NCBI RefSeq assembly: GCF_003334315.1
Contig: NZ_QOWR01000023.1
Direction: 5' to 3' (one strand)
Length of the DNA stretch: 64,000 bases
Origin: Escherichia coli
GTDB taxonomy: Bacteria; Pseudomonadota; Gammaproteobacteria; Enterobacterales; Enterobacteriaceae
This document shows, one piece after another, positions 52,354-57,471 of this stretch; position 1 is the stretch's first letter, and every line of letters starts with the position of its first letter. The translations under genes were made by a program, and so were the position numbers. The notes under the pieces are model-generated. The model had not been told where the DNA came from. It did not search any database and worked only from the letters and a program-made list of their open reading frames with translations.

Positions 52354-52641
52354 TGCAGGTCTCCTGGAGTCCACGCACATCGTGTAATGAGTCTGTTGCT
52401 CATCTCCTTGTCACACGTTGTGTAAAAGTGGCACTGCCAATTGTGTTGTGTAGGGATAATGACAATGAATGGTTAACTAAATGTTATGTATTGGCAACAT
52501 TGATGTGAGTTTTAATTGGGAAATTGTGAACCAGAGGTCAGATAAGCGAAGAATTGGTAGGGCCAATTCTTGTGGGGGGAGATGTCTGGTAAAGAAAAGG
52601 GCAATCCTCATCAGAGAATTGCCCTTAGGTTGTTGATCCAG

Positions 52642-52690
52642 AGCGCCTTATCTTGCCGGATGCGGCGTGAACACCTTACTCGGCCTATAG
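52642..52690. repeat. REP-like palindromic element
   Basis: gcgccttatcttgccggatgcggcgtgaacaccttactcggcctatag is REP-like (GCCGGATGCGGCG...). Confidence 0.5.
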
Positions 52691-52724
52691 GAATGTGCAG
52701 AATCACCCTGTAGATACTGTGTTC

Positions 52725-53087
52725 TTAAAACGCGGTCTTTGAAAACCCAGTCATCTCCTGCAGGCCCATTTCGCGGCCCAGTGCGGTCATTGGGTGCACA
52801 ACGACCAGTCCGCGAACACTTTTCTTCAGCTTGCCCATATCAGCCTGCTCTTTTTTGGTAATTGCGCGCTGGAATGGCATCTTCATCAGCTTCTGTGCTT
52901 CTTTACTCAGTTTTTGGCTATGAACTTCACGCAGGCGAGCAATTTCTGCTTCCAGCGTGGCTTTCTCTTTTTCCAGCTCGGCATATTTGTCTGCGGCTTC
53001 AACCAGCGAAAGATCGGCCTGCTGGTGGCGGATGGCGTCCAGGCGATCGCTGAGACGTTTGATTTCGTTTTTTTCGACTTCTTTCAT
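52725..53087 (-). CDS. yibL: YibL-family protein (ribosome-associated, function unknown)
   Basis: 120-aa [31 protein letters not shown]; position between lldP and mtlR. Confidence 0.85.
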
Positions 53088-53371
53088 GTGATGGCTTCTG
53101 ATAAAGATAAATTTATAGCCCCTAGTATGCGCGACCAGGTGCTTTGTTCACAACTAATGACATTGTAATAGTTCTGTAACGTAATCATTAACATGCTCAA
53201 AAACTACGCAATTCGTTGATTAATTAAGAAATCTATAGAAAAAAGATAATAAACAGCAGCGGATGATTATTGAGGATTCAGCACGTTTTCCTTAATGTCA
53301 TCTTTACCGGGAACCTAAACTAAAATTGGCGGCCGCGCATTCCCGGCGCGGGGTAATACGGAGATATCATC

Positions 53372-53581
53372 ATGGGCAAATTAGGTGAAAACGTTCCGCT
53401 TCTTATCGATAAAGCCGTAGATTTCATGGCATCAAGCCAGGCGTTCCGGGAGTATCTGAAAAAACTTCCTCCCCGTAACGCGATTCCGTCCGGAATACCC
53501 GATGAAAGCGTGCCGTTATATCTACAACGTCTGGAGTATTATCGTCGGCTTTATCGGCCGAAGCAGGTAGAGGGGCAGTAA
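53372..53581 (+). CDS. yibT: small protein of unknown function (69 aa)
   Basis: 69-aa [34 protein letters not shown], isolated in an intergenic gap; symbol assigned from position only. Confidence 0.5.
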
Positions 53582-53592
53582 GCAGACGTTGC

Positions 53593-54180
53593 TTACTTTT
53601 GAAAGGCTTTTTTTAAGCTGATTTTGGAAATCAGCTCAGTCAGTGAAAGGACCATTGTTGATCGCACAGCCTGTTGATAGCGCTGAATTTGCATTGCATA
53701 CAAACTGGAGTCTGCTGGTTCAAACTGTGGCGGCGGTGGTAACGCCGCCACGCAGTGCAGTTCACCAAAGGGTCCAAGGATTTCGTCGTCGGTAAAGGCG
53801 TACTCGTTGCCGTCGTGATTTAGCTCTTCACGCAATGCCATCAGCAGTTCCGCATCTTCGTATTCCTGGCGGTTAATGACGCCCAACCCGTAAATGAGTT
53901 TTAAACGCACAGAAAGATCGCCCAGCGGACCATCGCCGTCGAGTAACGGTTCTACAGCATACTTCACCGCGTAATCGTCTTTGCGGAATACCTGAAGCAC
54001 CAGAAGATTTACCGCCTCGGTCAGGAGCTCGACGGCGGTGATCAGAAAGCTTCGCACGGTTTTGCCAGCATTCAGACGCTCAAGCACACGGTTTTCAAAG
54101 GCCTGGGTTTGTTCCATTGTTGCCTGCATATCTGACAATCTGTTATTCGGGCGCAGGGTGTCCTGCGCCTGGTCCACCAT
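53593..54180 (-). CDS. mtlR: mannitol operon repressor
   Basis: 195-aa [34 protein letters not shown]; directly downstream of mtlD. Confidence 0.93.
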   Translation of the reverse strand: MVDQAQDTLRPNNRLSDMQATMEQTQAFENRVLERLNAGKTVRSFLITAVELLTEAVNLLVLQVFRKDDYAVKYAVEPLLDGDGPLGDLSVRLKLIYGLGVINRQEYEDAELLMALREELNHDGNEYAFTDDEILGPFGELHCVAALPPPPQFEPADSSLYAMQIQRYQQAVRSTMVLSLTELISKISLKKAFQK

Positions 54181-55328
54181 TATTGCATTGCTTTATAAGC
54201 GGTTACCGCCTCGGATACAACCTCGCTGTTGGCATCAAGACCGGAAATCTGTGCCAGCGCCGCCTGCGGACCTTTGTCAGCGATCAGTGCTGCCAGTTCC
54301 TGAGCCTGCGGATCATCTTCACTGCGGAAGTGCATTGCAGCGGCAATACCTTCAATCAGGTTTTTATGTGGCAGACCATATTCCAGCGTACCGAGCAGTG
54401 GCTTGATCAGACGGTCGCCAGCACTCAGTTTACGCAGTGGCTGACGGCCTACGCGCTCTACATCATCTTTCAGATACGGGTTCTCAAAACGGCCGAGAAT
54501 TTTCTGGATGTACGCCGCATGCTTGTCAGCGTCAAAGCCGTAGCGCTTGATCAATACTGCACCACTTTCTTCCATCGCACCTTTTACCACCGCGCGGATT
54601 TTCTCGTCGAGAATCGCGTCACGAATGGTCTGATGACCGGCCAGTTTTCCGAGGTACGCGGTTATAGCATGACCCGTGTTCAGGGTGAAGAGTTTACGTT
54701 CGACAAATGCCATCAGGTTGTCGGTTAACTCCATGCCTGGGATGTTCGGCAGTGCGCCTTTGAACTGCGTTTTATCGACAATCCATTCGCTGAAGGTTTC
54801 TACCGTCACTTCCAGCGGATCGTTAGTTGCCGAAGCCGAAGGCGGTACGATGCGGTCAACGGCGGAATCGACAAAGCCAACGTGTTCTTCTACCCACGCT
54901 TTGGCGTCTTCCGGCAGGGCGTTCATCACATGGCCTTTCAGCTGCGTGGTACCGCGTACCATGTTTTCACAGGCGATGATGTTCAGCGGGGATTCATTAC
55001 CTTGTTCTTTACGTTTCACCAGCCCTTTGGCGATTGCCGGAGCAATACGTTCCAGCACAACCGGGCCAACGGCGGTAGTGACTAAATCAACCTGAGCAAT
55101 CAGATCAACGACATCATCACCAATGCTGCTGACAGCATTGACGCCGGAAACGGTATCTACCTGCTCGGTTTCACCAACCACATGTACCTGATAGCTATGA
55201 CGGGCATTCAGGGCATCAAGTACCACCTGATTGACATCGGCAAACGTCAGTTGGATACCCGCGTCTGCCAGCAGTTTACCGATAAAGCCACGACCGATAT
55301 TACCTGCGCCAAAATGTAATGCTTTCAT
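54180..55328 (-). CDS. mtlD: mannitol-1-phosphate 5-dehydrogenase
   Basis: ORF track 54180..55646; start trimmed to [24 protein letters not shown] (382 aa); cat seen at 55326-55328. Confidence 0.95.
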
Positions 55329-55339
55329 AGTATTAACCT

Positions 55340-55557
55340 TCATCAATGTTTTTACCCGAGAGGGCTGGGGTGAGGCTTTTCCCTCACCCAAACCCTCTCC
55401 GTGAGGAGAGGGGCAGCGCCGGATGCGGCGTAAGCGCCTTATCCGGCCTACAAGAACGTGCAAATTCAACAAATTGTGATGCATCCTGTAGGCCTGATAA
55501 GCGTAGCGCATCAGGCAATTAACCCCACCTTCTCCATGTGGAGAGGGTGGGATTGGA
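55340..55557. repeat. REP elements plus GC-rich hairpins in the mtlA-mtlD intergenic region
   Basis: gccggatgcggcgtaagcgccttatccggcctaca and ctgtaggcctgataagcgtagcgcatcaggc (REP), flanked by ccctctccgtgaggagaggg and cccaccttctccatgtggagagggtggg hairpins. Confidence 0.8.
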
Positions 55558-57471
55558 TTACTTACGACCTGCCAGCAGTTCCAGCACTTCATCCACGCTG
55601 GTGGTGTGTGCCAGACGCTCGATGACGGACTCATCATCCAGTGCATTGGTCAGGCTGGTGATAACCTGAATGTGCTCGTTGTTACGGGCAGCAATACCAA
55701 TCACCAGACGGGCAATGTCATCTTCTTCTTCACCGAAGCGCACGCCTTCCGGGTACTGGCAGAACACGACGCCCGTTTTCAGTACGCGATCTTTCGCTTC
55801 AACCGTACCGTGTGGCACCGCGATAGACTCACCCAGATAAGTCGGGGTCAGTTTTTCACGATCCAGCATCGCCTGAACGTATTCCGGCTCAACGTAACCG
55901 CCTTTCACCAGCTGCTCGCCAGCAAAACGAATCGCTTCTTCTTTGGTTGCCGCTTTGCGACCGAGGAAGATGTTCTCCGCGCCTAGCTTGAACAGGTTAG
56001 CACTGGAATCGTCAAAGCTGTCTTTCAGGCTGTCTTTTACTTTCTCTTCGTTTGCCGTGTGGCGTTGGGCAGCAACCAGACGTTCGGTCAGGCTGGTGTA
56101 CAGGCCGCTGTCGAGGAAGTTGGTCAGCGAAATATGCTGTGCCTGCGGAACCTGGCGCATAGCGCGTTCGGTCAGGTCACGGTGAGTGATGACGAGGTCC
56201 ACATCTGGCGGCAGGTTGTTGATCGCGCTGTTAGTAACAGAAATCTGCGACAGACCTGCATCCTGAATTTTCTTACGCAGAACGCCTGCGCCCATCGCAC
56301 TGGAACCCATACCGGCGTCACAGGCAACGATGATTTTACGTACGTGGCTCAGGTCGTTAGTCACATCGCCAGCAGACAGCGGAGATGCGCCTTTAGACTC
56401 AGCTTTCATGTCCTGCATACGACGAGTTGCTGCTTCAATATCATCTTCTTCTTTCACTTTGCTGGTTTTCAGCAAAATAGCAGAGACAACGAAGGAGACA
56501 GCCATCGCCGCACACACACCCGCGATGTTAGCGAAGTAAGCACCTTTTGGTGTCATCGCCAGTACAGCAAGGATAGAACCCGGAGATGCCGGAGAAACCA
56601 GACCACCGCCCAGGATAGTCAGCGTGAACACGCCAGTCATACCGCCGAGGATGACTGCGAGGATCAGACGCGGATTCATCAGCACATACGGGAAGTAGAT
56701 TTCGTGGATACCCCCCAGGAAGTGGATGATTGCCGCACCGCCCGCAGACTGTTTAGCGCTACCACGACCAAAGAACATGTACGCCAGCAGCACGCCCATA
56801 CCTGGACCTGGGTTAGCTTCAATCAGGAAGAAGATTGATTTACCCAGTTCATGGGACTGCTGAATACCCAGCGGCGAGAAGATACCGTGGTTAATGGCGT
56901 TGTTGAGGAACAGGATTTTCGCCGGTTCAACAAAGATAGACGCCAGCGGCAGCATGTCATGGACAACCATGAAGTTAACGCCCGCAGCCAGCATTTTGGA
57001 CAGGGCTTCAACAATCGGGCCAATGCCGAGGAATGCCAGAATAGCGAGGATCATCCCGATGATGCCTGCGGAGAAGTTATTCACCAGCATCTCAAAACCG
57101 GATTTGATCTTACCGTCTACCCAGCGGTCGAAGTGCTTAATGCACCAGCCGCCCAGCGGACCTGCAATCATAGAACCGAGGAACATCGGCATGTCTGCGC
57201 CGACGATAACGCCCATGGTGGTGATGGCACCGACTACGCCGCCACGTTCGCCGCCTACCAGCTTACCACCGGTATAACCGATCAGCAGCGGCAGGAGATA
57301 AGTGATCATCGGCCCGACCAGCTTCGCCAGCGTCTCGTTCGGTAACCACCCTGTTGGAATAAATAACGCGGTGATGATACCCCACGCGATAAACGCGCCG
57401 ATATTTGGCATCACCATGTTGCTGAGGAAACGACCAAAGCTTTGCACTTTGATCTTAATATCGGATGACAT
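55558..57471 (-). CDS. mtlA: PTS mannitol-specific EIICBA
   Basis: 637-aa [35 protein letters not shown]. Confidence 0.97.

Follow-up and report, generated by a model that had tools for sequence, protein, structure and literature searches.

The 69-codon open reading frame (ORF) at positions 53372-53581 of the window, by which we mean the whole 64,000-nucleotide stretch of Escherichia coli DNA that was analysed, is the already annotated gene yibT, and its product is a divergent paralog, restricted to the Enterobacteriaceae, of the DNA polymerase III subunit theta (HolE) and of the phage P1 protein HOT. The gene is known, and there is nothing new in its identity. Taken together, our results make it highly probable that yibT is a genuine translated gene encoding a soluble, basic member of the theta/HOT group, that a stress-responsive promoter drives its transcription as a single gene, and that the transcript ends at a hairpin common to yibT and mtlR.

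The yibT coding sequence lies on the plus strand, opens with an ATG at 53372 and closes with a TAA at 53579-53581 (69 codons plus the stop), and a Shine-Dalgarno sequence, GGAG, is found on the same strand at 53360-53363, 8 nt ahead of the start codon. It sits inside a 505-nt spacer that runs from the start of yibL at 53087 (minus strand, 52725-53087; NCBIfam NF008244, E = 8e-57) to the stop codon, at 53593-53595, of the mannitol repressor gene mtlR (minus strand, 53593-54180; NCBIfam NF008234, MltR family, E = 1.3e-76). The gene is divergent from yibL and convergent with mtlR, and it is therefore monocistronic. The start, length and translation given for this ORF in an earlier note agree with the ORF listing; the note had also described the ORF as standing alone between yibL and mtlR, which holds in that the gene is monocistronic, yet the stop codon of mtlR is just 11 nt from that of yibT. 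A 35-aa ORF on the minus strand (53320-53427), which overlaps the start of yibT, was taken as chance.

The same note, which proposed no function, had chosen the label yibT from position only, and both the RefSeq name and the neighbouring genes agree with it in thousands of E. coli genomes whose DNA here is the same or nearly so. Megablast searches with the 601 bp from 53100 to 53700 found this region in 5,413 of 5,426 complete E. coli genomes, full-length in 5,410 of them. The 601 bp are 100% identical in DNA to those of E. coli genomes in which the CDS is annotated as yibT. Among these matches the region was always chromosomal and single-copy, and RefSeq lists the gene as "yibT: protein YibT". 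The ORF of the window does not differ in its 69-aa sequence, position or orientation from RefSeq WP_000517100.1 ("protein YibT"), which corresponds to b4554 of E. coli K-12 (PMC3938484), and the annotated gene order in E. coli is lldR-lldP-yibL, yibT, mtlR-mtlD-mtlA. The window carries a common allele, which ends in VEGQ, while other E. coli alleles end in VEEK and carry R59Q. One of the rare genomes that lack yibT has an IS1 element and a deletion that extends from the yibT promoter to yibF, and this is consistent with the viable yibT knockouts that have been published.

To describe the taxonomic distribution of yibT, we scanned one genome per species from 100,044 species with a degenerate pattern. 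The scan returned 68 loci, all of them in Enterobacteriaceae except for three on tiny or obviously contaminant contigs. The carriers comprised Escherichia, Salmonella, Citrobacter, Pseudocitrobacter, Pluralibacter, Kluyvera, the Klebsiella oxytoca group, Raoultella, Kosakonia, Phytobacter, some Enterobacter, Shimwellia, Mangrovibacter and Entomohabitans. The order yibL, yibT, mtlR is retained in most of the genera that have yibT; in Kluyvera yibL and yibT remain together and mtlR is not adjacent, and in Shimwellia, Mangrovibacter and Entomohabitans the gene is found at another location with no adjoining mtlR.

In all of the roughly 60 Enterobacteriaceae species with orthologs, yibT is an intact ORF of 66-77 codons. 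The pairwise dN/dS values (Nei-Gojobori method, 63-codon core) ranged from 0.06 to 0.29 wherever dS was measurable, the one exception being a very close pair of Salmonella subspecies that differ by just 11 substitutions. These orthologs are 57-78% identical to the E. coli protein, compared with 84-92% for YibL and MtlR, indicating that YibT evolves faster than its neighbours. The gene is clearly under purifying selection. In addition, intact YibT has been detected by native LESA-MS of K-12 colonies (PMC9196203), newly synthesised YibT was found by proteomics in persister cultures (PMC6414554), and the sigma-S-dependent Salmonella ortholog STM14_4446 was also seen by proteomics (PMC5437024). 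The earlier note had proposed that the ORF be checked for conservation across the Enterobacteriaceae and for translation; both checks come out in its favour, and yibT is a real, translated coding gene.

YibT is a protein of 8.0 kDa with a pI of 9.4 and a GRAVY of -0.53. Hydropathy computation revealed no hydrophobic 19-residue window and no transmembrane or amphipathic membrane segment, the highest 19-residue value being 0.65. Since it has no hydrophobic segment and its GRAVY is negative, YibT is not a membrane protein, although the solvent-tolerance papers describe it as "membrane-related"; UniRef sources name it a "cytoplasmic protein". The family is small: at E <= 1e-3, a search of 1.84 billion proteins yielded 77 representatives, a large share of them fragments. 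In an alignment of 32 family members, the invariant core consisted of D13, D17-F-M-A-S, Q23-A-F, E27-Y, P39, R53-L, Y57-R, Y61 and P63, and the N-terminus was conserved as M-x-K-[ILM]-G-[ED]-N. In the AlphaFold2 (AF2) model of the protein (pLDDT 81), two long helices, residues 8-30 and 44-61, form a hairpin whose ends are disordered. The disordered N-terminus has a pLDDT of 58 though it is highly conserved, as would be expected for a segment that becomes ordered upon binding.

Searched as a single sequence, E. coli YibT gave no matches or only chance-level matches in NCBIfam, PHROGs and PADLOC and no sequence match in the PDB, and its match to the Pfam theta family (PF06440, DNA_pol3_theta), with E = 0.1, was below threshold. 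The relationship to theta became evident at the level of the family. PF06440 matched 17 of the 32 aligned members at E <= 1e-3 and 30 of the 32 at E <= 0.1, with a best value of 5.7e-6. When the profile of the 32-member alignment was compared with the PDB, HOT of phage P1 was the sole significant sequence (E = 5.8e-5), residues 15-60 of YibT corresponding to residues 18-63 of HOT. Comparison of this profile with an alignment of theta and HOT proteins by hhalign gave a probability of 89.8% and an E-value of 1.8e-6, and the two were colinear over 46 columns. Distant sequences that bridge the two families, reached from the YibT profile, showed firm matches to PF06440 and to phrog_1105 ("theta subunit"), with E-values down to 7.6e-9. 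The best PDB matches of the AF2 model were likewise HOT (2ido_B/D) and theta (5m1s_F), with TM scores of 0.56-0.67; the Foldseek E-values were weak, as is usual for a helical protein of 69 residues. A match to REase_II (E = 0.039) and weak matches to 6PF2K were dismissed as chance, as were matches of the family profile to sulfotransferase, Cas8 and GDAP1 (E = 0.05-1). The theta homology is not new, since the Salmonella ortholog had been assigned to the theta superfamily by InterPro (PMC5437024). These findings give solid support, at the family level, to the homology of YibT with theta and HOT. A separate and highly conserved holE gene is present in E. coli, Salmonella, Citrobacter and other genera, and yibT occupies a different locus in the same genomes; yibT is therefore a paralog of holE and neither its ortholog nor its replacement.

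Theta (HolE; PF06440; PDB 1DU2, 2AE9, 2AXD and 5M1S chain F) and YibT are both basic helical hairpins of similar size (76 and 69 aa) and similar pI (9.2 and 9.4), both families are limited to Enterobacterales-type genomes, and their profiles are colinear, YibT 15-60 corresponding to theta 17-62. The invariant residues that they have in common are D17/D19, A20/A22, A24-F25/A26-F27, E27/E29, R53-L54/R55-L56 and R58/R60 (YibT/theta). However, the two proteins are only about 24% identical. The N-terminal segment N4-L5-A6 of theta, in which N4 is invariant and L5 and A6 are nearly so in the theta/HOT alignment, is not conserved in YibT; the residues at theta positions K15, K28, R30, N32, P34 and Q44 are absent; and the short middle helix of theta, helix 2, is replaced by a proline-rich loop in the AF2 model. 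Conversely, K3, D13, F18, M19, S21, Q23, Y28, P39, Y57, Y61 and P63 are invariant only in YibT. The genes also differ in their expression, since yibT is stress-induced at its own locus whereas holE is a housekeeping gene. HOT (PDB 1SE7 and 2IDO), which is annotated as 61% identical to theta and substitutes for it, lies much closer to theta than the far more diverged YibT does. The RL-HYRQL motif in the C-terminal helix of HOT resembles RLEYYRQLY of YibT, and the N-terminal segment that HOT shares with theta is missing from YibT.

We aligned the yibL-yibT spacers of 11 genera as a phylogenetic footprint. Most of the spacer could not be aligned; a 15-nt block, GCAC[G/A]TTTTCCT[C/T]AA (core GCACGTTTTCCTTAA at 53281-53295), was invariant across the 11 genera. 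In about 50 of the loci retrieved, and in one plasmid copy, a single exact match to the 14-mer GCACRTTTTCCTYA lies 60-95 nt ahead of yibT. On the plus strand, the marbox-like 20-mer TCAGCACGTTTTCCTTAATG at 53278-53297 is a candidate class II site for Rob/MarA/SoxS, ending 18 bp before the predicted -10 element. It shares 14 of 20 bases, including CACGTTTT, with the marbox of the mar operon, which we verified upstream of marR in K-12. Classical class II promoters of the mar/sox/rob regulon are those of inaA, fumC and micF. As in the class II promoters lpxC P2, lpxL P1 and rfaY P1, the yibT element would be in the forward orientation and overlap the -35 region; the block shows 2 mismatches to the definition gcannwwntgnnaaa, and the centre of its core lies at about -40 from the putative transcription start, within the class II range of -36 to -55 (PMC12052159). 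A scan with the marbox consensus AYnGCACnnWnnRYYAAAYn, allowing up to 3 mismatches, returned 133 matches in the window compared with 143 expected, and thus the consensus match at yibT carries no weight by itself, its frequency being at the level of chance. The gene is absent from the parts of the supplementary tables of two papers on MarA-family regulons that were accessible (PMC12052159 and PMC10268841). Published expression data fit a marbox: yibT mRNA falls to 2% of the wild-type level in a rob mutant (PMC7537768), it is down 47-fold in a butanol-tolerant sigma-70 mutant (PMC4888631), and octanoate induces yibT together with marA and ybjC (PMC3938484). The conserved block therefore fits a candidate class II marbox, the case resting on its conservation, its position and these expression data.

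The predicted -10 element of yibT, TAAACT at 53316-53321 on the plus strand, has a C at -13 (53315) and is of the sigma-S/sigma-70 type; A53317, C53320 and T53321 are invariant in the 11-genus alignment, and a transcription start near 53328 would be expected from its position. A simple promoter scan found no canonical sigma-70 -35/-10 pair at yibT, and the promoter has no -35 element; this is no surprise if it depends on an activator. A published list places the Salmonella ortholog STM14_4446 under the control of sigma-S (PMC5437024), and the predicted -10 with its C at -13, together with the marbox-like block, fits the published dependence on sigma-S and Rob. The purine-rich GGAG/GAGG block of the Shine-Dalgarno sequence is retained in most of the 11 aligned genera. 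In the divergent yibL-yibT region, positions 53164-53181 hold the PhoB box TGTAATAGTTCTGTAACG, the single exact match in the window to a published 18-nt site; ChIP-seq has placed a PhoB site at yibT/yibL, and PhoB activates yibT more than 2-fold (PMC10294691). With the box present in the window and PhoB-dependent expression published, yibT belongs to the Pho regulon. In the 11-genus alignment, this box is not conserved outside Escherichia.

Two further features lie at the ends of the transcript. In the predicted 5' UTR, a GC-rich stem-loop (CCGCGC, a 7-nt loop, GCGCGG; plus strand, 53333-53351) is not more stable than shuffled sequences (z = +1.06) and is limited to Escherichia, Salmonella and Citrobacter. 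Its function is doubtful because of this shuffle-level stability and its restriction to a few genera, and we do not claim it as a functional element. Pairing of RydC has been predicted at -24 to -10 of yibT (PMC6354806). At the 3' end, a perfect 7-bp inverted repeat, GTAAGCA-GACGT-TGCTTAC at 53578-53596, takes in the yibT and mtlR stop codons and is followed by TTTTG on the plus strand. The fold has a free energy of -9.5 kcal/mol (z = -3.6) on the minus strand and -11.6 kcal/mol (z = -1.65) on the plus strand. Having just a T4 tail, the hairpin fell below the thresholds of the terminator scan, and the repeat is likely to be a weak bidirectional terminator. A search of 52900-53800 against Rfam matched no RNA family at E <= 1.

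Copies of the gene are also found on mobile elements. In PLSDB, 385 records contain a 69-aa variant with about 72% identity to YibT. Most of them are mobilizable E. coli plasmids of about 5.16 kb that have a MOBQ relaxase and encode a replication initiator, MobA, two hypothetical proteins and the YibT-like protein; the promoter of this copy differs from that of chromosomal yibT. IncX1/IncR plasmids carry a 64-aa variant that was taken up along with flanking chromosomal DNA, in which the conserved 14-mer and a remnant of the 3' end of mtlR are still present, and a more distant copy is carried by a Citrobacter megaplasmid. HOT is itself encoded on mobile elements, and the theta homologs (hot) account for 34 phage records compared with the 385 plasmid records of the YibT variant. 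The plasmid spread of yibT copies thus parallels that of hot on phages, without an accompanying partner gene: in the contexts of the distant members and plasmid copies that we examined, there was no neighbouring exonuclease gene and no recurrent partner gene.

Three other readings of the locus have to be weighed against that of a protein-coding theta/HOT paralog. That the ORF is a reading frame left open by chance between two genes might be suggested by its shortness, by the absence of an NCBIfam model for it and by the lack of a significant Pfam match for the E. coli sequence by itself. However, the conservation, the synteny, the intact ORFs, the dN/dS values well below 1, the conserved Shine-Dalgarno sequence and promoter, and the detection of the protein in several proteomic studies refute this reading, to which we assign practically no probability. 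Another reading is that the locus acts at the RNA level, convergent transcription from yibT into mtlR lowering the mannitol repressor while the peptide is secondary. The stop codons 11 nt apart within one common hairpin are in keeping with such an arrangement, and mtlR-yibT is listed among convergent excludons identified from RNA-seq coverage (PMC12288877). It nevertheless seems to us very improbable as the main role of the locus, given the strong purifying selection on the amino acid sequence, the occurrence of yibT without an adjacent mtlR in Kluyvera, Shimwellia, Mangrovibacter and Entomohabitans, the plasmid paralogs that lack mtlR, and an abundance of YibT sufficient for top-down mass spectrometry; an RNA-level side effect may exist alongside the function of the protein. 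A third reading, drawn from studies of solvent tolerance, takes YibT to be a membrane-related regulator of fatty-acid composition, whose loss would raise unsaturated fatty acids and surface hydrophobicity and so confer tolerance to butanol and acetoin. Deletion of yibT does raise butanol tolerance and alter fatty-acid profiles and surface hydrophobicity (PMC4888631), complementation and overexpression reverse these effects (PMC7537768), deletion also improves acetoin tolerance (PMC9867144), and octanoic acid is an inducer of the gene (PMC3938484). On the other hand, the protein has no membrane segment by the hydropathy values given above and is named cytoplasmic in UniRef, the link to lipids drawn in PMC4888631 comes from STITCH network neighbours (gnsA and gnsB) and not from biochemistry, the phenotypes are modest (growth differences of 7-35%) and typical of the indirect effects of losing a member of a stress regulon, and the homology points to a protein-binding fold. 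We therefore consider a direct role in fatty-acid composition unlikely. If YibT is a protein-binding partner, the solvent-tolerance and fatty-acid phenotypes of the knockouts would be indirect, and this is the more likely explanation of them.

As a paralog of theta and HOT, YibT probably acts as they do, as a small stoichiometric partner that binds and stabilises another protein, and the invariant face of helix 1 together with the conserved disordered N-terminus would provide the contact. The gene would be transcribed alone from a stress-responsive promoter, with a sigma-S-type -10, the conserved marbox-like activator site upstream of it and, in E. coli, an additional PhoB box farther upstream, and transcription would end in the hairpin common to the convergent mtlR. 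The obvious candidate for the partner is epsilon (DnaQ), the proofreading exonuclease, and we offer it tentatively, at a rather low probability. In one version of this idea, YibT would be a stress-induced alternative theta that binds the N-terminal exonuclease domain of epsilon, either replacing HolE or beside it, and alters proofreading, the stability or activity of the exonuclease being changed in stationary phase or under the stresses sensed through Rob/MarA/SoxS, sigma-S and Pho, while the plasmid copies would act as hot does in P1. The homology spanning helix 1 and helix 3 with the shared invariant D, A, A-F, E, R-L and R residues, the highly conserved disordered N-terminus (M-x-K-[ILM]-G), the spread to mobile elements and the stress-specific expression all point this way. 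In the crystal structure of epsilon with HOT, the N-terminus of HOT reportedly pairs with the edge of the epsilon beta-sheet. Because this N-terminal segment of HOT and theta, with its N-L-A motif, and the middle helix differ in YibT, we put epsilon binding forward only as a hypothesis. Moreover, genomes with yibT also carry holE and do not need a second protein to bind epsilon; the 43 papers found to mention yibT report no mutator or antimutator phenotype; and the phenotypes that have been published bear on tolerance to solvents and on the fatty acids of the membrane, and not on the fidelity of replication (PMC4888631, PMC7537768 and PMC9867144). Structure prediction with AF2 gave no docking signal. 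The model was of a single chain (YibT, 40-aa linker, eps186, 60-aa linker, theta, 40-aa linker, eps186) with a 15-row alignment of our own that combined YibT and theta with 12 dnaQ homologs, and it thus included theta with eps186 as a positive control. Its pTM was 0.35, the pLDDT of YibT dropped to 42-74, and neither N-terminus was ordered or formed a strand; the theta control was not recovered either, and the model therefore weighs neither for nor against binding to epsilon. With these points on both sides, we regard an alternative theta that alters proofreading as distinctly unlikely. The fuller proposal, in which epsilon or another DEDD exonuclease has in YibT a second theta-like partner that is switched on under stress by Rob/MarA/SoxS, sigma-S and PhoB, appears to us more doubtful again.

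The re-identification of an annotated small gene is correct and already known, and by itself it changes nothing. YibT is among the better-expressed small proteins of E. coli. The conserved activator site would put yibT in the mar/sox/rob regulon, besides those of sigma-S and Pho. The one family to which YibT shows solid homology, theta/HOT, is not known to do anything other than bind and stabilise the proofreading subunit of Pol III. If YibT does not bind epsilon, the theta fold would have been recruited to a new partner. If it does, the general stress regulons would be tied directly to replication fidelity, a link that would bear on stress-induced mutagenesis and on the evolution of antibiotic resistance, and the copies of yibT on mobile plasmids would be explained as well. 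Should YibT indeed prove to be an alternative theta, stressed enterobacteria could tune the proofreading of replication, and the copies of the gene on small plasmids would be there for the reason that P1 carries hot.

Between genera, YibT diverges much faster than its neighbors: the product of yibT (window 53372-53581) shows 57-78% identity to the E. coli protein, whereas YibL (52725-53087) and MtlR (53593-54180) show 84-92%. The differences in YibT cluster in the loop at residues 30-49 and in the C-terminal tail, and almost no variation was observed at residues 12-29. In E. coli QL57EC, yibT has been deleted together with the mtl operon; at this locus (L096 3689-4441), the spacer stops after its yibL-proximal 188 bp, an IS1B element follows directly, and the chromosome resumes beyond it at yibF. 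GC-rich palindromic repeats that resemble REP sequences (GCCGGATGCGGCG...), putative REP elements, lie downstream of yibL (window 52640-52700) and between mtlA and mtlD (window 55250-55560). Because of these repeats, the mechanical mtlD ORF (54180..55646, 488 aa) starts approximately 100 codons upstream of the annotated gene, which encodes 382 aa.

Database searches also revealed yibT-like genes on plasmids, with matches in 385 records of the PLSDB collection, the majority of which are 5.16-kb MOBQ mobilizable plasmids of E. coli. This collection includes whole chromosomes under a plasmid label (matches H54, H56, H57, H59-H61 and H64-H69; for example, a 4.9-Mb E. coli, a 5.4-Mb Klebsiella and a 4.1-Mb Proteus record), so the plasmid match counts for chromosomal genes are inflated; these chromosome records also served as a source of dnaQ orthologs. 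Among the fetched plasmid loci, yibT-like genes were located at L002 3222-3431 (minus strand), L003 6001-6195 (plus strand; 64 aa, on IncX1/IncR plasmids) and L004 5001-5201 (plus strand; a distant copy, on a Citrobacter megaplasmid), and neither an exonuclease gene nor another recurrent partner gene adjoined any of the three. The IncX1/IncR copy was captured together with its chromosomal flanks, which are the conserved promoter 14-mer upstream (L003 5924-5937, plus strand) and, downstream, residual sequence from the 3' end of mtlR (L003 6196-6260). A second, exact reverse-complement copy of the 14-mer (L003 6129-6142, minus strand) lies inside the coding sequence, at the codons for PEENVP, and the equivalent place in the window (53501-53513, GATGAAAGCGTGC) matches it at 10 of 13 positions.

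An E. coli yibT with 100% identity was present in two 'Campylobacter phage' records, A11a and A18a (the H36/H37 pair; GenBank MG065691.1 165136-165342 and MG065686.1 8781-8987), which probably reflects contamination or chimeric assembly. In assemblies of Corallococcus and Ramlibacter, E. coli-type or plasmid-type yibT also occurred, on contigs that are very short or have low coverage, and it was likewise present on a contig of an Oscillospiraceae MAG (the L022, L023 and L038 set); these are contaminant contigs and do not reflect a true distribution outside Enterobacteriaceae.

Stand-alone theta-like genes encoding 65-73 aa were found in unrelated chromosomal contexts, at L089 3055-3276, L091 4001-4198 and L093 4001-4198. 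Their products share the motif VD[FL]xAST-AF...HYRDIYRP and firmly match both PF06440 and the PHROG theta-subunit family phrog_1105. These genes are intermediate between YibT and theta, and therefore suggest a wider set of theta paralogs.
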